This document shows, piece after piece, positions 18,944-45,102 of a DNA stretch of 64,000 nucleotides. The position numbers and the translations under genes were made by a program. The DNA comes from Escherichia coli (GTDB lineage Bacteria; Pseudomonadota; Gammaproteobacteria; Enterobacterales; Enterobacteriaceae). The notes under the pieces are model-generated. The model did no database searches and had not been told where the DNA came from. It saw only the letters and a program-made list of their open reading frames with translations. The DNA is taken from NCBI RefSeq assembly GCF_050920415.1, contig NZ_CP169309.1; one strand, 5' to 3'. Each line of letters starts with the position of its first letter. The first letter of the stretch is position 1.

Positions 18944-20677
18944 TTACATACGCTCTACTGTCTCAATACCCAGCGTATCCAGGCCCAGCTTCAGCGTCTT
19001 CGCCGTCAGTTGTGCCAGTTTCAGACGACTGTTACGCACTTCTTCGTTTTCTGCGCTGAGGATCGGGCAGTGCTCGTAGAAGCCAGAGAACAGACCGGCC
19101 AGATCGTACAGGTAAGCACACATCACGTGCGGCGTGCCTTCACGGGCAACCACAGTGAGGGTTTCTTCAAACTGCAGCAGGCGAGCTGCCAGTTGCGCTT
19201 CACGATCTTCACGGATGATTACCGGAGCTGCAGCCAGTTGCTCTTCGTCAATTTCTGCTTTACGGAACACGGACAATACACGCGTGTAAGCATACTGCAT
19301 GTATGGCGCGGTATTACCCTCAAACGCCAGCATGTTGTCCCAGTCGAAGATGTAGTCAGTGGTACGGTTTTTGGAGAGATCTGCGTATTTAACCGCACCA
19401 ATACCAACCGCATTAGCCAGTTTTTCCAGCTCATCGGCTGGCATATCCGGGTTCTTCTCTGCCACCAGACGGCGTGCGCGTTCCAGGGCTTCATCCAGCA
19501 GATCGGCCAGTTTCACCGTACCGCCAGCACGCGTTTTGAACGGTTTGCCGTCTTTGCCCAGCATCATGCCGAACATATGGTGTTCCAGCGGTACGGATTC
19601 CGGCACATAGCCTGCTTTACGGACGATCGCCCACGCCTGCATCAGGTGTTGATGCTGACGGGAGTCGATGTAATACAGCACGCGATCGGCATGCAATGTT
19701 TCATAACGATATTTCGCACAGGCGATATCAGTGGTGGTGTAGAGATAGCCACCATCTTTCTTCTGAATGATCACGCCCATCGGTTCGCCTTCCTTGTTTT
19801 TGAACTCATCAAGGAATACGACGGTTGCGCCTTCGCTTTCTACAGCCAGACCTTTGGCTTTGAGATCAGCCACGATACCCGGCAGCATCGGGTTGTACAG
19901 GCTTTCGCCCATCACGTCATCACGAGTCAGCGTCACGTTCAGACGATCGTAGGTGATCTGGTTCTGCGTCATGGTGATGTCGACCAGTTTGCGCCACATC
20001 TCACGGAAGTATTCGTCACCGCTTTGCAGTTTTACCACGTAGTTACGTGCACGCTCAGCGAACGCTTCATCTTCATCGTAATGCTTTTTCGCATCGCGGT
20101 AGAAACCTTCAAGATCAGCCAGCTCCATTTCACCGGCATTTTCCTGCTGCTGCTTTTCCAGCCATGCAATCAGCATACCGAACTGAGTGCCCCAGTCGCC
20201 GACGTGGTTTGCGCGAATCACTTTGTGACCGAGGAACTCCAGAGTACGCACTGTTGCGTCGCCAATAATGGTAGAGCGCAGGTGACCGACGTGCATCTCT
20301 TTCGCCACGTTTGGCGCAGAGTAGTCAACTACAATGGTCTGTTTTTCTGGCGTAGCAACACCGAGACGATCGGACGCCAGCGCCTGCTGAACATGTTCAG
20401 CCAGGAATGCCGGATCAAGGAAAATGTTGATAAAGCCTGGTCCGGCGATCTCAACCTTGCTGGCGATACCGTTAAGATCCAGATGAGTCAGCACCTGCTC
20501 TGCTAATTGTCGCGGTGCCATACCCAGTTTTTTAGCAACTGCCATCATGCCGTTAGCCTGATAGTCGCCGAACTGAACTTTTGCTGACTGACGAACCTGC
20601 GGTTCGCAATCCGCAGGCGCGCCTGCCGCAATCATGGCCTGACGGACTTTTTCTGAGAGAAGAGCCTGAATATTCAC
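18944..20677 (-). CDS. argS: Arginyl-tRNA synthetase
   Basis: 577 aa, [43 protein letters not shown]...; class I HVGH motif. Confidence 0.97.
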
Positions 20678-20892
20678 CGGAATACCTTACATTGATGAAG
20701 CGAGCAAAAATTGCCCGCACCAGTTAAAGAAATTAGGGCGGGAGTATACTGCAAATGGCTGTTTTCGTCAGCAACGTGCGCGTGGCGTATTGCCGTTTTC
20801 ACCATTGCATCAGAAGCGGCGTGAAATCAGCGGTTGGTTGGCGCAGGGCAACAGGGTAAATTAACGCTTTTACTGAAAGACGAAGAGTGATT

Positions 20893-21459
20893 ATGGCGAA
20901 CTGGCAATCTATCGACGAGCTGCAGGATATTGCATTGGATTTACCGCGATTTACCCACGCATTAGATGAACTTTCTCGCCGTCTTGGGCTGGATATCACT
21001 CCGCTGACTGCCGATCACATTTCTTTGCGTTGCCATCAAAACGTTACCGCTGAACGCTGGCGTCATGGGTTTGAACAGTGCGGCGAGCTTTTGTCAGAAA
21101 ATATGATCAAGGGCAGGCCGATTTGTCTGTTTAAATTGCATGAACCGGTACAGGTGGCTCACTGGCAGTTTTCAATTGTAGAGCTACCGTGGCCTGGGGA
21201 AAAACGTTACCCGCACGAAGGTTGGGAACATATTGAAATCGTTCTGCCAGGTGATCCTGAAACGTTGAATGCCCGTGCGCTGGCATTGCTTTCTGATAAA
21301 GGACTCAGCCTTCCGGGGATCTCGGTTAAAACCAGTTCGCCAAAAGGTGAGCATGAGCGATTACCGAATCCGACGCTGGCGGTCACCGATGGCAAAACGA
21401 CCATTAAATTTCATCCGTGGTCCATTGAAGAGATCGTTGCCAGCGAGCAGTCGGCGTAA
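20893..21459 (+). CDS. yecM: YecM (VOC-fold protein of unknown function)
   Basis: MANWQSIDELQDIALDLPRFTHALDELSRRLGL..., 188 aa. Confidence 0.88.
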   Translation: MANWQSIDELQDIALDLPRFTHALDELSRRLGLDITPLTADHISLRCHQNVTAERWRHGFEQCGELLSENMIKGRPICLFKLHEPVQVAHWQFSIVELPWPGEKRYPHEGWEHIEIVLPGDPETLNARALALLSDKGLSLPGISVKTSSPKGEHERLPNPTLAVTDGKTTIKFHPWSIEEIVASEQSA

Positions 21460-21463
21460 TTAA

Positions 21464-22219
<756 letters not shown>

Positions 22220-22264
22220 TTTTTACCGTTGCATCATGTCGCCCAATATGATGCTTGCTCGTAC

Positions 22265-22298
22265 CAGGCCCCTGCAATTTCAACAGGGGCCTTTTTTT
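22265..22298 (+). terminator. Rho-independent terminator after cutC
   Basis: AGGCCCCTG...CAGGGGCCT hairpin followed by TTTTTTTAT. Confidence 0.7.
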
Positions 22299-22604
22299 AT
22301 CCCCGAAAAGTATAAAAAACGAACGATTTCTGTGATCAGTTGAGCGCGTGACAGTGCGCATAGCGTTGTGCTAAAAATTTTTATATATTCATATTAATTA
22401 TGTAATTTAAATTACTAAAACTGACAAATATATATTCTAAATAACAACTGGGTTATTCCTTAGCAATTAATGATTACATTGTAATAAATCATATTCTTTA
22501 TCGATTATTTCAGGCAGTGTTGTGCCGAATTATGCAAGCGGTCAATTCGTTGTATATTTAATTATACAATGTTTTCGGTGTTCTGGAATTAATTAGAGGA
22601 ATCT

Positions 22605-23705
22605 ATGCGAGGGAAAAAACGCATTGGGTTATTATTTTTGCTGATAACGGTTGTGGTTGGTGGCGGCGGGTTATTACTGGCGCAAAAAGCCTTACATAAA
22701 ACGTCGGATACCGCATTTTGCCTTTCCTGCCACTCGATGAGTAAACCTTTTGAGGAATATCAGGGAACTGTCCACTTTTCTAACCAGAAAGGGATACGTG
22801 CGGAATGTGCCGATTGCCATATTCCAAAGTCAGGGGCGGATTATTTATTTGCTAAATTAAAAGCTTCTAAAGATATTTATCATGAATTTGTTAGTGGCAA
22901 AATAGACAGTGACGATAAGTTCGAAGCGCATCGTCAGGAAATGGCCGAAACAGTATGGAAAGAATTAAAAGCAACTGATTCTGCAACGTGTCGTAGTTGC
23001 CATTCTTTTGATGCCATGGATATTGCCTCGCAAAGTGAATCTGCGCAGAAAATGCATAACAAAGCGCAAAAGGACGGCGAAACCTGTATCGATTGTCATA
23101 AAGGCATTGCCCATTTTCCACCACAAATAAAAATGGATGACAACGCGGCGCATGAGCTGGAAAGTCAGGCCGCTACTTCAGTTACCAATGGCGCACATAT
23201 TTATCCTTTCAAAACTTCTCGCATAGGCGAGCTGGCTACCGTGAATCCTGGTACCGATCTCACCGTCGTTGATGCCAGTGGCAAACAGCCGATCGTTCTG
23301 TTGCAGGGTTATCAAATGCAGGGCAGTGAAAACACGCTCTACCTGGCGGCAGGTCAACGGCTGGCGCTAGCCACATTAAGTGAAGAAGGTATCAAGGCGT
23401 TAACGGTAAACGGGGAATGGCAGGCTGACGAATACGGCAATCAATGGCGTCAGGCGTCTTTACAGGGTGTGCTTACCGATCCCGCATTAGCGGACCGTAA
23501 ACCGCTATGGCAATACGCTGAAAAACTTGACGATACCTATTGCGCTGGTTGCCATGCCCCTATTGCCTCCGACCATTACACCGTCAATGCATGGCCGTCC
23601 ATTGCCAAAGGAATGGGTGCGCGAACCAGCATGAGCGAAAACGAACTGGACATTTTGACGCGGTACTTCCAGTACAACGCCAAAGATATTACCGAGAAAC
23701 AGTGA
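22605..23705 (+). CDS. torY: Membrane-anchored multiheme c-type cytochrome TorY (NapC/NirT family)
   Basis: 366 aa; multiple CxxCH haem motifs (CLSCH, CADCH, CRSCH, CIDCH, CAGCH). Confidence 0.92.
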
Positions 23706-23729
23706 TCCTCGTTGATCAGGGAGGAAGTT

Positions 23730-26159
23730 ATGACATTAACAAGACGTGAATTTATTAAACACAGCGGTATTGCCGCTGGGGCGCTGGTGGTGACATCGGC
23801 TGCACCGTTACCTGCATGGGCAGAAGAGAAGGGCGGCAAAATCCTCACCGCAGGCCGTTGGGGAGCGATGAACGTAGAAGTGAAGGACGGCAAGATTGTT
23901 TCTTCGACAGGCGCGCTGGCGAAAACCATACCGAACTCCTTACAGTCTACGGCGGCTGATCAGGTACATACAACGGCGCGTATTCAGCATCCGATGGTGA
24001 GAAAAAGCTATCTCGATAATCCACTACAACCGGCGAAAGGTCGTGGCGAAGATACTTATGTACAGGTGAGCTGGGAACAAGCATTAAAACTTATTCATGA
24101 TCAACACGATCGCATTCGCAAAGCTAACGGACCATCGGCCATTTTTGCCGGATCTTACGGCTGGCGCTCTTCTGGCGTGTTACATAAAGCGCAAACCTTA
24201 CTGCAACGTTATATGAATCTTGCGGGCGGTTATTCAGGGCATAGCGGCGATTATTCAACCGGGGCGGCACAGGTGATCATGCCGCATGTGGTGGGTTCCG
24301 TGGAGGTGTATGAACAGCAGACCTCCTGGCCGCTGATTCTGGAAAACAGCCAGGTTGTGGTGCTGTGGGGGATGAACCCGCTGAATACCTTAAAAATTGC
24401 CTGGAGCAGTACCGATGAGCAAGGGCTGGAATACTTCCATCAGCTGAAAAAATCTGGCAAACCAGTGATTGCCATTGATCCTATCCGCTCCGAAACCATC
24501 GAATTCTTTGGCAATAATGCCACCTGGATCGCGCCGAATATGGGCACCGACGTGGCACTGATGTTAGGGATTGCACATACCCTGATGACACTAGGCAAAC
24601 ACGATAAAGTGTTCCTTGAAAAATACACCACCGGGTATCCGCAGTTTGAAGAGTATCTGACAGGTAAGAGCGATAAAACGCCGAAGAGCGCGGCCTGGGC
24701 GGCGGAAATTACTGGCGTAGCGGAAGCGCAGATAGTCAAACTCGCTGAACTGATGGCGGCAAATCGCACAATGCTGATGGCAGGCTGGGGAATTCAGCGC
24801 CAGCAATATGGTGAACAGAAACACTGGATGCTGGTGACGCTGGCGGCGATGTTAGGGCAGATTGGTACACCGGGCGGCGGGTTTGGTTTCTCTTATCATT
24901 ACTCAAACGGTGGCAACCCGACGCGTGTTGGCGGAGTGCTGCCGGAAATGTCTGCGGCGATTGCCGGACAGGCCAGCGAGGCCGCTGATGATGGCGGAAT
25001 GACGGCGATTCCTGTTGCCCGTATCGTCGATGCGCTGGAAAATCCTGGCGGCAAATATCAGCATAACGGTAAAGAACAAACGTATCCGAATATCAAAATG
25101 ATCTGGTGGGCGGGTGGCGGTAACTTTACCCATCACCAGGATACTAATCGTCTGATTAAAGCATGGCAGAAACCGGAGATGATCGTCGTTTCTGAATGCT
25201 ACTGGACCGCAGCTGCTAAACATGCAGATATCGTATTACCGATCACCACATCGTTTGAGCGCAATGACTTGACGATGACCGGTGATTACAGCAACCAGCA
25301 TATTGTACCGATGAAGCAGGCTGTCGCTGCGCAATTTGAAGCGCGTAACGATTTTGATGTGTTTGCCGATCTTGCTGAATTACTCAAACCTGGCGGAAAA
25401 GAGATCTATACCGAAGGTAGAGATGAAATGGCGTGGCTGAAATTTTTCTATGATGCCGCTCAGAAAGGTGCGCGTGCGCAACGCGTGACTATGCCGATGT
25501 TTAATGCTTTCTGGCAGCAAAATAAACTGATCGAAATGCGCCGCAGCGAGAAGAACGAACAGTACGTTCGTTATGCTGATTTCCGCGCCGATCCGGTGAA
25601 AAATGCGCTGGGTACGCCAAGCGGCAAAATTGAGATTTACTCCAAAACGCTGGAAAAATTTGGCTATAAGGATTGCCCGGCACACCCAACCTGGCTTGCG
25701 CCTGATGAGTGGAAAGGTTCCGCCGACGAGAAGCAGTTGCAGCTTCTGACCGCACATCCGGCACACCGTTTACACAGTCAGCTTAACTATGCGGAACTGC
25801 GTAAAAAATATGCGGTTGCCGATCGTGAACCGATCACTATTCACACCGAAGATGCTGCTCGCTTTGGTATTGCGAATGGCGATCTGGTGCGTGTCTGGAA
25901 CAAACGTGGTCAGATTCTGACAGGCGCGGTGGTGACTGACGGGATCAAAAAAGGCGTGGTATGCGTGCATGAAGGTGCATGGCCAGATCTGGAAAATGGC
26001 TTGTGTAAAAACGGCAGTGCGAACGTGTTAACGGCGGATATCCCCAGCTCTCAGCTGGCAAATGCCTGTGCCGGTAACTCTGCGCTGGTGTATATCGAAA
26101 AATATACGGGCAATGCACCGAAGTTAACGGCGTTTGATCAGCCAGCTGTTCAGGCATAA
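23730..26159 (+). CDS. torZ: TMAO/biotin-sulfoxide reductase catalytic subunit TorZ (molybdopterin oxidoreductase)
   Basis: Twin-arginine signal [31 protein letters not shown]; about 809 aa from this ATG. Confidence 0.92.
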
Positions 26160-26168
26160 GACGTGAAA

Positions 26169-26188
26169 AGCGCCCGGAAACGGGCGCT
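26169..26188 (+). terminator. Hairpin after torZ
   Basis: GCGCCCG-gaaa-CGGGCGC stem-loop immediately after the torZ stop; no strong T-run. Confidence 0.4.
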
Positions 26189-26210
26189 GAGGTTATGCAA
26201 ACGTAAAACT

Positions 26211-26312
26211 GCCTGATGCGCTATGCTTATCAGACCTACATAGTCCCTGCAACATATTGAATTAAAAAGGCTTTGTAGGCCGGATAAGGCGTTCACGCCG
26301 CATCCGGCAGTA
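26211..26312. repeat. REP (repetitive extragenic palindrome) elements
   Basis: Canonical REP units GCCTGATGCGCTATGCTTATCAGACC and GCCGGATAAGGCGTTCACGCCGCATCCGGCA. Confidence 0.8.
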
Positions 26313-26323
26313 ATACCAGACCT

Positions 26324-28471
<2,148 letters not shown>

Positions 28472-28523
28472 ACAAACTCCCTTTAAAATGGCCGATGGCA
28501 CCTGTCTATGATAGGTGGCAAAT

Positions 28524-29264
28524 TCAGAAAAGAGAAGATTGCTGTGGAATAGCCGGAACTGCTCCGATCTCTGGAAGTGTTTTACGTAAGCCTTCCCACA
28601 GGGTATGTACCAGTTCCGGTGCCTGGGCAATATCTGGCGTATGTAAAAAAAGATAAGGCGTAGTGGTCTGATGCCACTGCGCTAATTTTTGTAACCAAAC
28701 CTGAAACAACTCTCGGTTTTGCGTCATATCATCACTACCGATAAAACGGATCAGCGGATTTGTCGCCGTCAGCACAGCATGTACGGGAACTTTAGGTTTT
28801 TTCCGTTGAGCGTCGCGAATAGCTTCACTGTGTGGGCGTGCTGCATGAACCGGGCGGCTGTCTAAAATCACCCGATTAACGCCGCGCTGATGTAAACCGC
28901 GATTAAGTGTTTGTTCCTCTTCCCCTTTGGCGAAAAACTGTGGATGGCGGACTTCCACACCATAATTAAACTCGCCGGGAAGAGAGTCGAGAAAATGCCA
29001 AAGCGCAGGCAGATCCCGTGGGCCAAATGTGGCAGGCAGTTGCAGCCAGTATTGCCCAATGCGCGGCGCTAACGGTGACAAGCGAGTCAAAAATTCAGTT
29101 ACTAAATCATCGCAATGCCGTAATGCTGCCTGATGCGAAATGGTCGCCGGAAACTTAAAACAGAAGCGAAAATTATCTGTGGTCTGCTCACGCCAGCGCA
29201 GGACAACCTCGGATTTCGGCAGGGCGTAAAGCGTGGTGTTGCCCTCCACACAGTTAACATGACG
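28524..29264 (-). pseudogene. yecE: yecE (DUF72 family) lacking its 5' end, interrupted by the prophage insertion
   Basis: Frame matches E. coli YecE from ...RH-NCVEGNTTLYALPK to the C-terminus; the expected N-terminus (MIYIGLPQWSHPKW...) is absent and the upstream in-frame sequence has no start codon and runs into phage DNA. Confidence 0.7.
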
Positions 29265-29275
29265 GGTATTAAAGG

Positions 29276-30589
29276 CTAACTTACTGATTTTAATAGGCCT
29301 CTTGTGTCACTTTGGTGACTATGGGACATCATTGGGACATAATCTGCCAGCTTCTGATTCAGCATGGCGATCTGTTCTGCATTGCTGTCAGTCATCCATG
29401 CTCCGTATACATTGAACACCATCTGGGCACTTGCATGGCCCATCTGGCTGGCAATGAAGCTTGGATTTGCTCCGGCAGATAATGACCAGCACGCATAAGT
29501 GTGTCGTGACTGGTATGCCTTTCGATGCCTGATGCCTGCATGCTTAATGGCTGTTTCCCATGAGTCGCCAATGGAATCTACTTTGTAGATAAAACCTACC
29601 TGTTTGCTTTTTCTAACCACCTGGGGGTTAAATACGAAAGTACATTCATGATTCACTGAACGTCCATATTCACGTAGTTGAACCTTGATGTGGTGCTGCT
29701 TACCCAGTCTTGTCATTTCAGCCTGATTTTTCAGGACACTGATAGCGGGCTGGATAAGATGCACAACCCTGTTTGTACTTGCCTCAGTTTTAGGTAGAGT
29801 GAACTCGCCGAGTTTCGTATAATTACGCCTGATAGTAATTGTTCCTGCTTTCAGATCGATATCTTCCCATGCCAGGGAGACCAGTTCACCGTGACGCATT
29901 CCTGTGTACACAGCCAATGACCACAGGTTTTTCGTCTGCTGATGTCGGCAGGCATCTATCAGGCGAATAAATTCGTCACGAGTTAGCGGATCTGGTTCTG
30001 CCCTGGCTCTTTTAAGAGGCTTAATTCCCTCGAAGGGATTTGCTTCTAAGTAACCGTGATCTGCAGCAAACTGAAACATTCCAGCGATTGTCGTCATGTA
30101 ATAATTTACAGTAACGACGCTCCGTCCTTTTAGTGCTGCTTTGTTTTTCGTTGAATTCTGATACCCGGTCAGCAAATCTTTCCTGATATACAGCAATTCC
30201 TCTTTGGTTACCGATGACACCAGTCTGCTGCCTCCAATTTTCGGAACCATCGTTCTTGCAACGGATTCATAGCGATTGAATGCATTTGCAGAGATTTCCA
30301 TTCGTTTCAGATCCAGCCACTTTTCTTCAAGTTCTTTCACCGTAATTTCTTTTTTACTTACCCCAAAAGCCTGAAGGTTAGGGGAGTCAGGGAACTGTGC
30401 AGCATAATCAAAGCTTCCTGTGCGGATGGCAAAACATACCGATGTCCGCAGTTCCCCGGCGATCTTCCTGTTCTTGGCAGTGTCAGGGACACCAAGATTT
30501 TCCCTGACACGTTTACCTTTAAAATTAAACCAGATGCGTAATGTGCCGCCGTGGTTTTCGACGCCTGTTGGATATTTGACTTTATCCAT
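29276..30589 (-). CDS. int: Phage integrase (tyrosine recombinase)
   Basis: 437 aa; arm-binding N-terminus (GTLRIWFNFKGKRVRE) and C-terminal catalytic region; GGAGG RBS 6 nt upstream. Confidence 0.9.
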   Translation of the reverse strand: MDKVKYPTGVENHGGTLRIWFNFKGKRVRENLGVPDTAKNRKIAGELRTSVCFAIRTGSFDYAAQFPDSPNLQAFGVSKKEITVKELEEKWLDLKRMEISANAFNRYESVARTMVPKIGGSRLVSSVTKEELLYIRKDLLTGYQNSTKNKAALKGRSVVTVNYYMTTIAGMFQFAADHGYLEANPFEGIKPLKRARAEPDPLTRDEFIRLIDACRHQQTKNLWSLAVYTGMRHGELVSLAWEDIDLKAGTITIRRNYTKLGEFTLPKTEASTNRVVHLIQPAISVLKNQAEMTRLGKQHHIKVQLREYGRSVNHECTFVFNPQVVRKSKQVGFIYKVDSIGDSWETAIKHAGIRHRKAYQSRHTYACWSLSAGANPSFIASQMGHASAQMVFNVYGAWMTDSNAEQIAMLNQKLADYVPMMSHSHQSDTRGLLKSVS

Positions 30590-30644
30590 CGATACCTCCA
30601 GACGCCCAAGAGCGATACGAGCTTACATATTTCATGATATTAAA

Positions 30645-41689: not shown

Positions 41690-41943
41690 ACAACCAGACA
41701 ATGACTTTTACCCCTGAACAATTACGCAAACAGGCGCAGGAAATGCTGCGACAGGCGGAACAACTGGAAAAATCAGGCGTAACAAAAGATGCCATTCGTC
41801 GGGATATGGTACCCGCGCTCAGAGAACTGATGCAGGCAAAACACCGCGCACAAAAAGCGGTGGATGAGCTGGTGGATTGTGTGGCAGAGCTGGAAACAAA
41901 AGTTGGAAAATTTGAAAAACTGGTGCAGGAGGTACTGCGCTGA
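41686..41943 (+). CDS. Hypothetical coiled-coil protein (85 aa)
   Basis: ORF between the helicase and Q genes, overlapping both ends. Confidence 0.5.
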
Positions 41944-42308
41944 TGCGTGATATTCAGATGGTTCTTGAGCGTTGGGGGGCGTGGGTGGCAAATAACCACG
42001 AAGATGTTACCTGGTCGTCGATTGCTGCGGGATTCAAAGGACTGATTCCGTCAAAGGTTAAGTCACGTCCGCAATGTTGTGACGATGACGCGATGATCAT
42101 TTGTGGTTGCATGGCTCGTCTGAAAAAGAACAACCGTGACTTGCATGATCTGCTCGTGGATTATTACGTTGGGGGAATGACTTTTATGGCGCTTGCAAGG
42201 AAACATGGACGTTCAGATTGCTGGGTTGGTCGTTTGTTGCAAAAAGCAGAGGGGATCGTGGCTGGTATGTTAATGATGTTGGATGTCAAACTAGAGATGG
42301 AATATTAA
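41943..42308 (+). CDS. Late-gene antiterminator Q (QuuD/phage-82-like family)
   Basis: 121 aa, [34 protein letters not shown]...[16 protein letters not shown]; resembles E. coli DLP12 QuuD as recalled. Confidence 0.75.
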
Positions 42309-42475
42309 TTTAATTCTCATAGAATTCTTTTCTTTATGAGGGGCGAATAATGCCCCTAAACTAGAATATTATAGCTGCCTCATTATCTGGGCAGCATTAG
42401 GTTGTTGAGTGGTTTTCGCTATTAAAGCAATCATTCAAAAGGTATAAAATATGAAGCTGGGTTCTATATTAACGC

Positions 42476-43663
42476 TTACTCCATGCTAAGTGAATCCTGA
42501 TAGCGCTTAAATGCCTCCGCGAAAGCTAGAGCAGCATCAGCATTTGATACCATGTATTCTTCTGTAATGCCTGTTTGGGACTGGAAATATAACTTTCCAT
42601 AAATGCAAATTGGGATTTGATAGTTATCTTTAAATCGTCGGTCTGGTGAGCCATCTTTATTTGTTTTTGCCCATGTATGCCCAGCTATGCTGGCATCACT
42701 CGGAACACCATCCTCTTCATGGAACCCTTGATGCTGCGCATTAATTTGTAATTCCCGTAAGTCAATCAGAGCAAATGCCCCATCGGGGCGAGGAATTACA
42801 GCAATACCCGGATAAAGCAATATATCGTCGCCATTGACATTTTCAAATCGCATTGCTCTTCCAGTAAAACGAATTAGATCTGTTGAAGCGAAATCAAATA
42901 CGACTGGATGACGATCAACTGCTCGTGTAGCTAACGTCCTTTCTGCAAACTGATCTATAGCTTTATCTGCGGTAATATCCCATTTTTTGATACTTGATTT
43001 TAAAATATCGAAAGCACGAATCATTGCTGCATAAGCCCGCTGTGAGGAATCGCTGGTTTCGAAATTAATGACGATTTTAGTGTTATCTTCCCAGGATACA
43101 AGACGAGATACTTCTGCTTGTATTTGTGGTAGCGTTGCTTCAAGTTCTGCAATGCGACGTTTATAAAACCATCGAAACAGGCTTGATTTACGTCGAGCCA
43201 ATTCACTCTTTTGTCTTGATTCTTCTGCAAGAGCCTCTTGTAAGTCAGATGCTATTTCCGCTCTTTGTTCTCGTGCTTTAACGATCAAGTCTCGTAAAGG
43301 TAAAAGAGATGTACTTGTCAAGGCCTCTACTGAGGCACTGGAGATTTCATTCATGCCTGTTTGTGGCATGTACATTTTTGCGTTTGATGGGGTGTTGTCT
43401 GAAATTAACTCGGGTGCATCAATATGAGATTCTACAGACGACGGATTTAGCTGAATGGTTGTGGATGGTTTGTCTTTGTATGGTAAACGAGGGGATGTAT
43501 ACGATAAACCAGATCCTGGTAACCCTAGAGTTGCTTTAATTCCTTTTTGGTTAACATTAACTGTGGCTCCGGGGACACCAAAACTTGCGCTTACCCCATG
43601 TTTACCGATGTTAAGGCGTACTCCGGGGAAAATGGTAAAAGTTTGTCTGAAGCGAAGAGACAT
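42476..43663 (-). CDS. Reverse-strand moron: 395-aa protein with DUF4236-like N-terminus, central coiled coil and unknown C-terminal domain
   Basis: N-terminus MSLRFRQTFTIFPGVRLNIGKHGVSASFGVPGATVNVNQKGIKATLGLPGSGLSYT matches the DUF4236 pattern; AGGGA RBS; oriented against late transcription; AT-rich flanks. Confidence 0.75.
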   Translation of the reverse strand: MSLRFRQTFTIFPGVRLNIGKHGVSASFGVPGATVNVNQKGIKATLGLPGSGLSYTSPRLPYKDKPSTTIQLNPSSVESHIDAPELISDNTPSNAKMYMPQTGMNEISSASVEALTSTSLLPLRDLIVKAREQRAEIASDLQEALAEESRQKSELARRKSSLFRWFYKRRIAELEATLPQIQAEVSRLVSWEDNTKIVINFETSDSSQRAYAAMIRAFDILKSSIKKWDITADKAIDQFAERTLATRAVDRHPVVFDFASTDLIRFTGRAMRFENVNGDDILLYPGIAVIPRPDGAFALIDLRELQINAQHQGFHEEDGVPSDASIAGHTWAKTNKDGSPDRRFKDNYQIPICIYGKLYFQSQTGITEEYMVSNADAALAFAEAFKRYQDSLSME

Positions 43664-43696
43664 AAGATAATCCCTGTGTAGTAATGTCTAAAGTTA

Positions 43697-43717
43697 CATT
43701 CCATACTGGAATGTAAT
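43697..43717. promoter_or_regulatory. Perfect 9-3-9 palindrome upstream of the moron gene (candidate operator)
   Basis: TACATTCCA-tac-TGGAATGTA located 34 nt upstream of the start codon at 43663. Confidence 0.45.
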
Positions 43718-43855
43718 ACTGCGATGAGACACGAGGCTCATTAAGGATTTTGGCATTTTGCTGACATAAATTCTATAAAAATTATGGTGATAAACGTTTT
43801 ACAATCGTAAAAAAACAAATATGCTGTTAAGAGTGGTACTACGCCACACAGCTTA

Positions 43856-43881
43856 AACCCGCCGATGAGCGGGTTTTTTTG
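43856..43881 (+). terminator. Rho-independent terminator
   Basis: ACCCGC-cgatga-GCGGGT followed by TTTTTTT. Confidence 0.65.
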
Positions 43882-44037
43882 TGCACAGAAAACCCCCAGC
43901 TAGGCTGGGGGTTCCGGAAAGCTTTCAGCTTTGAGCCAGTTATTAAAACCCCTTTTGATTTGTTAAAACACCTTGCGGTCTGGCAACTTCTTAACTCACT
44001 TATTGTTTCCACCCATGTTTTTGGATACCTGCTGTAG

Positions 44038-44074
44038 CTGTCAGATTAGCGCGATAATCTGACAGCTTTTTTTT
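44038..44074 (+). terminator. Strong rho-independent terminator
   Basis: 11-bp stem CTGTCAGATTA...TAATCTGACAG followed by T8. Confidence 0.75.
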
Positions 44075-44363
44075 ACAACGAATCCTTCTGATCTGCTTTT
44101 GCGGGGCTTTTTTGTATCCGCTCCATGCCCGGCGTATAAGCGGAGGTTGGTCAGTTTTCTAAAAATTGAAATACCTCACAATTCAGCCAGTTAATGGTTG
44201 TTTGTCTGGCGAAGAGTTTGTAAATAAAAAAACGCATGGTGAATCCCCCTAAGCGGCGGGGCGAATCAGCAGTCAGTTCTGGGATAATCGCGGGTTCGTA
44301 TGCTGATGCCGGACTCACCGGGAGGCACCCGGCACCATGCATCATGGTCATCCCCTTGTATGA

Positions 44364-44389
44364 TACCCCTCTCCGGAGGGGTATTTTTT
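44364..44389 (+). terminator. Rho-independent terminator
   Basis: TACCCCTC-tccg-GAGGGGTA followed by TTTTTT. Confidence 0.7.
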
Positions 44390-44822
44390 GGATAAAAAAG
44401 CCCGCGCTGGGAGGCACGGGCGGCAAGGAATAAAACGTGAAGAAATTTTCACAGGCGCATAATAATCCGATGTTGCCAGATTTTGCAACTGCATCATCTG
44501 GTTATTATGTGAGCTGGAAAATCAGATTCTGTATGGACTGAAGCCATGCTGTTATTCAGGGCCAAAGAACGGACTTTTTCTTCCGCCTTTCAGGTAACGA
44601 TTAATGAGAAAAAGACTGAAATGCCCCCTCGGGGAGGAGGATAGTAGAAAAAAGAACCCGCCAGCAAAAATATTGGGGGGATGAACAGCTTTCGCTACTC
44701 TGGTTGCTGGCGGGTATAGCTCCTCATGAATAAGAATGTCGCGGTATTTTTTAATGGAAATGAGAATCATTGTCAACTGATTGCGTGTGTTGTCTTCATA
44801 CATGACTGGTAAAGGTGATTCA

Positions 44823-44853
44823 GGCCATCAGAGTTTTGCTGATGGCCTTTTTT
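44823..44853 (+). terminator. Terminator immediately upstream of the holin start (candidate tR'-like late terminator)
   Basis: GGCCATCAG-agttttg-CTGATGGCC followed by TTTTTT; lies inside the extended holin ORF of the ORF track. Confidence 0.6.
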
Positions 44854-44886
44854 CTTTCCGGTAGCACAGGTCTGTCGGGGCGGGAT

Positions 44887-45102
44887 ATGTATCAGATGGA
44901 AAAAATATCAACAGGCATTGCCTACGGCACCTCCGCAGGCAGTGCTGGCTACTGGTTTTTACAGTGGCTTGATCAGGTCAGCCCGTCACAGTGGGCTGCG
45001 ATTGGTGTACTGGGAAGTCTGGTTCTGGGCTTTCTGACTTATCTGACGAATCTGTACTTCAAAATCAGAGAAGACAGAAGAAAGGCTGCGAGAGGAGAGT
45101 AA
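44887..45102 (+). CDS. Holin (EssD/phage-21 S-like, class II)
   Basis: [71 protein letters not shown], 71 aa, closely resembles DLP12 EssD as recalled. Confidence 0.85.

Follow-up and report, generated by a model that had tools for sequence, protein, structure and literature searches.

A reverse-strand DUF4236 gene between the Q gene and the late promoter of an Escherichia coli prophage as a candidate for phage protection of the lysogen

The cargo gene and the Q-to-PR' interval

A stretch of 64,000 nucleotides of Escherichia coli DNA (contig NZ_CP169309.1), referred to here as the window, carries a prophage integrated at yecE in which a single large gene on the minus strand at 42476..43663 was examined as a candidate for protecting the lysogen against other phages. 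This cargo gene has an ATG start and encodes a protein of 395 amino acids (aa) that is matched over its full length by the PHROGs family phrog_17982. On one side it is flanked by the gene for a late antiterminator Q of 121 aa at 41943..42308 (plus strand), which is labelled 'antiterminator Q family protein' in RefSeq and whose product is 85-94% identical by tblastn to annotated phage Q proteins. On the other side, and forming the right-hand boundary of the cargo slot, is a predicted block at 43798..43882 (plus strand) composed of the late promoter PR', the Q-utilization (qut) region and the terminator tR'. A consensus scan placed the PR' -35 element TTTACA at 43798-43803 and the -10 element TATGCT at 43820-43825, with the qut region at about 43838-43846 and the tR' hairpin and T-run at 43855-43882 (hairpin 43855-43876). 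This block is 80% identical to that of VT1-Sakai (AP000400.1), in which the depositors' labels are 'putative late promoter', 'putative Q-utilization' and 'rho-independent terminator for pR' transcript'. E. coli, Edwardsiella and the phage PhiR40_1 all retain this block, whereas the DNA upstream of it differs. When the upstream DNA of three genomes (two E. coli and Edwardsiella) was aligned, the sole conserved segment was TGTTAAGAGTGG(T)TAC..CG.CACACAGCTTAA, with a GC-rich hairpin and then a T-run after it.

The cargo gene is real, intact and under purifying selection, and a chance open reading frame (ORF) is excluded. Intact homologues of 394-405 aa with 62-93% identity were found in Escherichia, Klebsiella, Serratia, Edwardsiella, Paracoccus and Phaeobacter, and their ratios of nonsynonymous to synonymous substitution rates (dN/dS) against the window copy are 0.06-0.20. 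G+C content is 0.37-0.43 over 42300-43950, compared with 0.50-0.55 in the flanking phage genes, and this foreign composition, taken with presence in some related prophages and absence from others, fits a moron. A 1.58-kb block that runs from the end of Q through the cargo gene to a terminator hairpin is 99.7% identical in 11 complete E. coli genomes, and the same block is found at 93.7% identity in a twelfth, where the prophage backbone is different. The arrangement recurs in Edwardsiella tarda, in which a 73% identical protein is encoded directly after a Q gene of the PF06530 type, convergent with it and ahead of holins.

An earlier reading of this DNA, made from the sequence without database searches (the sequence-only reading), had given the same 395-aa minus-strand ORF and the same N-terminus, in exact agreement with the gene described here. 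Its AT-rich flanks and its Q-like antiterminator were likewise found as described, and its placement of the gene between Q and a holin at 44887, opposite to the late strand, holds, as a class II holin gene, the first of the lysis cassette, starts at that position (44887..45102, plus strand, inside the ORF 44815-45102; label from RefSeq for homologous DNA). The terminators that it had noted downstream of the region were also borne out, with 12 terminator-like sites in 42200-44900 against 2.3 expected. It had further identified the position with the slot used by stx or nmpC, and here it has to be corrected. Lambdoid cargo downstream of Q is known from stx1 and stx2 in Stx phages and from nmpC in DLP12, and stx is read together with the late genes. 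In VT1-Sakai the PR' block overlaps the end of Q and precedes stx1AB, whereas in the window PR' lies 1.5 kb downstream of Q and the PR', qut and tR' elements all follow the cargo gene on the late-strand map. Judged by the position of the predicted promoter, the cargo gene occupies the Q-to-PR' interval, points away from PR' and does not belong to the late transcript; it is not late-operon cargo of the stx type, which lies downstream of PR'/tR' on the late strand. Because it is upstream of PR' and on the opposite strand, the gene would be insulated from Q-dependent late transcription.

The Q-to-PR' interval appears to be a genuine exchangeable cargo slot in its own right. Phage PhiR40_1 (PV340560.1; L105 1997-2443) encodes a Q that is 94% identical and carries in the same slot an unrelated reverse-strand gene of 147 aa, for which no PADLOC match was obtained. 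In a sister yecE prophage of E. coli MFDS1022581 (NZ_CP169399.1), which is 100% identical in its left arm over window positions 20000-32000 and has replication-gene products in common with the window prophage, genes for RusA and a DUF1133 protein replace the Q and DUF4236 module in a clean module swap, with an IS66 insertion also present. Since Q must stay with its cognate qut, anything between the two would be co-inherited, and such hitch-hiking is the simplest account of the linkage of the cargo gene to Q.

Q and the cargo gene converge, and their 3' ends are separated by two stem-loops, at 42339-42357 and 42374-42395. The copy from E. coli O158:H23 has both, altered only by a change in a loop and a G-U-compatible change in a stem. 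The stem-loops may stop transcription from both directions, although they have no canonical T-runs and were not called by the terminator scan. The upstream region of the cargo gene (43664..43797, minus strand) contains an AGGGAT Shine-Dalgarno-like site at 43670-43675 and a perfect 10-bp palindrome, TTACATTCCA-tac-TGGAATGTAA, at 43694-43716, which is broken in the O158:H23 copy. A relaxed scan returned a weak promoter candidate, TTACGA-18-CATAAT at 43810-43781, positioned back-to-back with PR' and partly beyond the upstream region; neither a LexA box nor a strong sigma-70 promoter was found upstream of the gene. About 27 nt preceding the ATG are conserved in all contexts in which the gene occurs, and the rest of the upstream DNA differs.

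The cargo protein and its family

To the N-terminal domain that the sequence-only reading had called DUF4236-like, a Pfam scan assigned DUF4236 itself (PF14020; residues 3-56 on model positions 1-55 of 55, E=3.6e-19; 43496..43657, minus strand), and no other significant family was found in the protein. Weak Pfam matches to BBP1_C and RPW8 (E>0.05) were dismissed as an effect of coiled-coil composition. Residues 1-393 aligned with positions 1-382 of 390 of the phrog_17982 profile (E=3.4e-172), of which the cargo gene is therefore a full-length member; the family is listed in PHROGs as of unknown function and is without annotation, so membership is silent on function. The NCBIfam search gave nothing meaningful, as its sole match, ArsN2 (E=0.083), is far below the cut-off and was dismissed, and sequence and profile searches of PDB returned nothing below E=0.1. 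Full-text literature searches with DUF4236, PF14020, the WP accession and the PHROG identifier found no study of the protein, with one incidental mention and unrelated Plasmodium gene identifiers as the only returns. The earlier view that the protein lacks an assignable function is in keeping with these results, in that DUF4236 is the only Pfam family and no assignment came from PADLOC, NCBIfam or PDB.

An AlphaFold2 model of the whole 395-aa protein (predicted local distance difference test, pLDDT, 74.5) gave the layout DUF4236, linker, helical hairpin and PH-like domain. DUF4236, a Gly-rich beta-hairpin meander with a basic N-terminus, is predicted to form strands over residues 7-56 with pLDDT of about 60-67, and residues 63-109 are predicted to be a disordered, Pro/Ser-rich linker. 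A central coiled coil had been proposed previously; the region is indeed predicted to be helical, but in the form of an antiparallel helical hairpin of residues 118-194 (43082..43312, minus strand), with helices at 118-160 and 164-194 and pLDDT of about 83-93. At its tip the hairpin carries a conserved basic-aromatic motif, RRKSSLFRWFYKRR, whose residues F163 and F166 do not vary in the family. The C-terminal portion of about 200 residues (195-395; 42479..43081, minus strand) had been left unassigned with a call for structure prediction; it still has no Pfam family, but its predicted fold, an alpha/beta domain with a PH-like beta-sandwich that follows the long helical hairpin, is modelled with pLDDT 95.5. 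Both the seven-stranded beta-sandwich and the capping C-terminal helix of the PH-domain superfold are present in the predicted domain. The likeness to the PH-like superfold and to the bacterial bPH families is at the level of fold only, with 0-14% identity, and no Pfam family, bPH included, reached E<=0.001 in 49 diverse C-terminal domains of the family. Two features set the domain apart from PH-like domains, namely an additional helix and strand at its N-terminus and a number of invariant polar residues that is unusually large. Residues invariant in the family are W228, D229, R242, E316, D323, W331, N335, D341, R343, N347, P351, Y355, G365 and E368, and so many invariant polar and aromatic positions suggest a specific conserved ligand or partner.

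From 1.84 billion representatives of clusters at 50% identity, a family profile covering residues 96-395 (hairpin and PH-like domain) recovered 3,464 at E<=1e-3, a lower bound for the size of the family, and 604 at E<=1e-30. Members come from Proteobacteria, Bacteroidota, Verrucomicrobia, Spirochaetes and other phyla. The hairpin and PH-like core therefore defines a large stand-alone family with no Pfam, PADLOC or PDB assignment. A Foldseek search of AFDB recovered the same family, with 265 matches at E<=1e-3, a few of them annotated as fused to an AAA+ ATPase or FtsK-gamma domain. DUF4236 was found at the N-terminus in 43-47 of the 57 long members scanned with Pfam. A scan of 100,044 species-representative genomes gave 325 relatives, a lower bound as a single peptide pattern was used, and within E. 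coli the family is patchy, being present in 134 of 5,426 genomes (2.5%).

Of the 149 top representatives that match the core, 63 continue for at least 100 aa past it at the C-terminus, and 44 of these long-tailed relatives (about a third of the 149) contain a transmembrane (TM)-like segment 30-49 aa past the core. Ten of the 149 have instead a hydrophobic 19-mer N-terminal of the C-terminal domain. Pfam scans of the 57 longest members identified bacterial SH3 (SH3b) domains in 30 and PG_binding_1 in 2, located in the C-terminal tail. The conserved family core is therefore most likely cytoplasmic and membrane-proximal, and the optional tail periplasmic. Membrane association of the window protein itself is inferred by way of these relatives, with the basic-aromatic hairpin tip only suggestive.

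It was also observed that the Klebsiella plasmid p90CM2-172k (L154 3001-3810) and five similar plasmids carry unannotated, N-terminally truncated copies that span residues 124-393 at 80% identity; these are without DUF4236 and the linker and are probably gene remnants.

Genomic settings of the family and interpretation

The sequence-only reading had asked whether homologues of the cargo gene sit in prophages or in defence islands, and both settings were found, with homologues at prophage ends, on an integrative and conjugative element (ICE) and a plasmid, and in defence islands. A variant of about 76% DNA identity is the last prophage gene at tRNA-Pro/yejM in another 122 complete E. coli genomes, where the order is DinI, the cargo-family gene, a hypothetical gene and tail-fibre assembly. 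Klebsiella and Raoultella have the family gene between smpB/ssrA and tail-fibre genes, and in Serratia it occurs in an ICE hotspot as well as on an MPF_I conjugative plasmid. The prophage-end copies and the Serratia ICE copy have about 130 bp of upstream DNA in common, which indicates that the gene moves with its own leader; in the prophage-end copies a conserved upstream terminator is followed by a promoter candidate, TTCACC-16-TATCAT. The family was also seen on 48 viral contigs of IMG/VR, and in at least 11 of these the gene is terminal. Relatives of the cargo gene thus move independently, in prophage ends, the Q-to-PR' slot, ICEs, plasmids and chromosomal islands.

Neighbourhoods were compared for the 76 species loci in which the family gene was callable, out of 80 returned for the 325 relatives. 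The best neighbour cluster was seen in only 5 of the 76, by which a conserved partner gene or a two-gene system for the whole family was ruled out; the family gene stands alone in variable surroundings, even within Chryseobacterium. When the 431 genes within three positions of the family gene were scanned with Pfam, the recurrent families included helicases (AAA_11, AAA_12, AAA_19, AAA_30 and UvrD), nSTAND3, ThsB_TIR, Fic, the HEPN family pEK499_p136, Mrr_cat, EH_Signature, SNF2, ResIII, PLDc_2, HSDR_N, MTES_1575, DUF2726, integrase and resolvase. PADLOC models were then compared with 40 large neighbours from 33 loci, and 14 proteins at 12 loci gave matches, several of them near full length, including ZorD (E=1.7e-293), HamB (E=3.7e-245), a Type IIG restriction-modification protein (E=2.4e-188), PDC-S37 (E=1.4e-145), DpdF (E=2e-113) and PifA (E=1.2e-70). 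The partners ZorC (with ZorD) and HamA (with HamB) were confirmed separately beside family members. A complete Gabija system is convergent to the family gene in two Serratia elements, the ICE (L005 11414-15012) and the plasmid (L155 9800-12605), which carry two different GajA/GajB subtypes, and LmuA/LmuC/LmuB (Lamassu) adjoin a long SH3b-bearing member within an integrase island. The family thereby presents the pattern used in guilt by association, namely recurrent known defence neighbours in otherwise variable surroundings.

Two observations on these neighbourhoods are recorded separately. At about 10 of the 76 loci (L041, L043, L044, L045, L061, L067, L071, L077, L092 and L094), a large helicase resembling PDC-S37 (also Hhe and MkoA) occurs no more than two genes from a family member and frequently shares its strand; six of these were scored by PADLOC or fall in a BLAST cluster with a scored one, and L092 and other Azospirillum helicase loci were assigned from neighbour clusters. 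This could reflect functional pairing in some lineages or co-occurrence in islands. DUF4236 proteins make up 2 of 145 neighbour genes at loci L051-L076, and some islands carry two DUF4236 genes side by side.

With relatives tied to defence islands and mobile elements in this way, a lysogen-expressed defence or exclusion function is the best reading of the cargo gene. The candidacy put forward by the sequence-only reading is strengthened by the relatives beside Gabija, Lamassu, Zorya and Hachiman and on mobile elements, and is not helped by PADLOC, which returned no match for the protein. From this context, we put at about even the chance that the gene is a self-contained moron giving the lysogen protection against other phages. 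In the mechanism proposed, the gene would be expressed in the lysogen and its product would sit at the cytoplasmic face of the inner membrane, where the PH-like domain might bind a conserved ligand or partner, whether a lipid, an envelope component or an entry-associated factor. The helical hairpin would provide membrane contact or oligomerisation through its basic-aromatic tip, and the DUF4236 module could be an assembly or output element. Incoming phage genomes would then be blocked at entry, or a membrane-directed abortive response would follow. A wider proposal, which we hold only tentatively and consider rather doubtful as a whole, is that the gene belongs to a widespread family of non-enzymatic, single-protein immune modules of the inner membrane in which the PH-like domain reads a phage-entry or envelope cue and DUF4236 is the output or assembly element, with the Q-to-PR' interval serving as a cargo slot.

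Several results count against protection of the lysogen. None of the 5,027 defence-protein hidden Markov models in PADLOC-DB v2.0.0 matched the cargo protein at E<=1, and no recognisable enzyme or effector domain was found in it. The copies in Paracoccus (L004) and Phaeobacter (L018) are among ordinary chromosomal genes with no visible island. Identity of 62-64% between Gamma- and Alphaproteobacteria, with dN/dS of 0.06-0.2, is unusually high conservation for a phage sensor. The promoter of the cargo gene is only a weak match to a sigma-70-like consensus. The window protein has no hydrophobic 19-mer (maximum Kyte-Doolittle value 1.18), so that the link to the membrane is extrapolated from relatives, and for those long relatives the positive-inside test of TM topology was uninformative (1.6 versus 1.5 K+R per flank). 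Finally, 21 of the 33 loci had no PADLOC-positive large neighbour, and as the neighbours were chosen for large size without a random-locus control, the defence enrichment is striking but qualitative.

Some of the same results would fit an accessory factor for envelope or stress tolerance, modulating inner-membrane or cell-wall physiology in a ter-like manner (tellurite, colicin, phage inhibition) and carried for general host fitness. Long relatives that combine a TM helix with SH3b or PG_binding_1, the DUF4236 module held in common with a 402-aa ter-cluster protein of about 2,700 plasmids, a degree of conservation suited to a conserved host target and the presence of some copies amid housekeeping genes all point in this direction. 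However, only residues 1-71 are common with the ter-cluster protein, the neighbourhoods are dominated by nucleic-acid-targeting defence systems rather than envelope genes, and the distribution is very patchy at 2.5% of E. coli genomes; we regard this explanation as unlikely, though it deserves to be taken seriously. Lower in our estimation is a counter-defence or competition factor that serves the mobile element by neutralising host immunity or excluding rival elements. Variable hotspots of mobile elements hold defence and anti-defence genes alike, the family is found on prophages, ICE and plasmids, and DUF4236-only proteins are encoded by lytic phages of Klebsiella, Acinetobacter and Brevundimonas. 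Full-length relatives, by comparison, were found in only 2 of 50,697 sequenced phage isolate records, the protein at 395 aa exceeds most known anti-defence proteins, and many members are in chromosomal islands by complete defence systems, where none of the neighbours tested was a phage or plasmid gene (L034, L094, L071 and L077).

The recurrence of the gene next to Q, in two E. coli prophage backbones and, at 73% protein identity, in Edwardsiella, together with an upstream region that abuts PR', would be expected of a Q-tied function in the phage life cycle, such as late transcription, lysis timing or the lysogeny decision. Near-identical members are nevertheless found without any Q at prophage ends, on the ICE and plasmid and in chromosomal islands; the sister yecE prophage has another module in place of Q and the cargo gene; PhiR40_1 pairs its 94% identical Q with an unrelated gene; and hitch-hiking between Q and its cognate qut accounts for the linkage more simply, which makes a life-cycle role improbable. 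The least credence is given to a selfish or neutral passenger, or a latent toxin, of no benefit to host or phage. Such a gene could well be without an enzymatic domain and without a PADLOC match, but strong purifying selection with intact frames across phyla and the very large family with its invariant polar residues make it highly improbable. If protection against phages is indeed the function, current defence catalogues have missed a large and taxonomically broad immune family, and the mechanism would not be one of the common nuclease, NADase and nucleotide-signalling schemes, given the lack of a recognisable enzyme. It would also provide a first function for DUF4236, a domain present on thousands of ter-cluster plasmids and in many phages.

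Elsewhere in the prophage, the late-operon leader between tR' and the holin gene (43883..44886, plus strand) contains two small RNA (sRNA)-like Rfam matches, STnc490 at 43891-44005 and STnc100 at 44205-44393, each with a terminator-like hairpin after it; neither a tRNA gene, as in Stx phages, nor a toxin gene was found in this leader. The leader of a prophage of E. coli 08-00022 with an identical cargo gene (L001 11554-12737) differs from that of the window and holds three tRNA genes and genes for a TerB-family protein, a DUF3927 protein and the anti-adaptor IraM. In the early region of the window prophage, two tandem copies of a unit in which an isrK-like sRNA precedes a C4 antisense RNA were identified at Rfam gathering scores (36828-37016 and 37481-37669), which suggests a duplicated antisense module of the P1/P7 type for immunity or antirepressor control.

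Comparison with known systems

Prophage cargo in reverse orientation that is a candidate for defence is a well-known kind of thing; what is new relative to the catalogues and literature searched is the protein family, the combination of domains and the Q-to-PR' slot. As with Stx-type cargo, the window gene is foreign, lower in G+C and inserted between an antiterminator gene and the lysis cassette, and in Stx1 phages the Q gene and the PR'/qut/tR' block are homologous to those of the window. The two differ in where the cargo stands, as stx1AB of VT1-Sakai follows PR' and tR' on the late strand, whereas the window gene is upstream of PR' on the opposite strand, and in VT1-Sakai and H-19B-type phages there is no spacer at all between Q and PR', unlike in the window. 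A location between Q and PR' refines the way in which cargo sites of lambdoid prophages are to be interpreted, as cargo there would be insulated from late transcription and inherited with the antitermination specificity module.

The closest parallels in organisation are BstA, SieA/SieB, RexAB-type proteins and SNIPE/PD-lambda-1, with which the cargo gene has in common that it is a single prophage gene, oriented against a neighbouring phage operon, with relatives in defence islands. Signs of membrane localisation in the cargo family may extend this likeness to membrane-bound defence and exclusion proteins. There is, however, no sequence relationship of the cargo protein to BstA, SieA/SieB, RexAB or SNIPE (PADLOC gave no matches), and the window protein contains neither a nuclease nor any other recognisable effector domain. 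For homologues of SNIPE, a membrane-bound defence nuclease, it has been proposed that PH-like domains target the protein to the membrane (bioRxiv 10.1101/2025.11.03.685801). By analogy, this offers a precedent for the logic suggested here for the PH-like domain, and is not evidence of relatedness.

The ter-cluster DUF4236 protein of IncHI2 plasmids and Klebsiella IncFIB/HI1B plasmids has its N-terminal module in common with the window protein (51% identity over 55 residues; hhalign probability 98.6%, residues 1-71) and is of similar length at 402 aa. Homology over the full length was considered and ruled out, as only the N-terminal 71 residues are related; the remaining 330 or so residues are unrelated to the window protein at both sequence and profile level. 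In about 2,700 plasmid records, this protein of 402-407 aa is encoded between an HpcH-type aldolase gene and terW (for example, L102 5001-6209 and L103 5001-6224). The ter-cluster gene is therefore part of a multi-gene operon, whereas the window gene stands alone.

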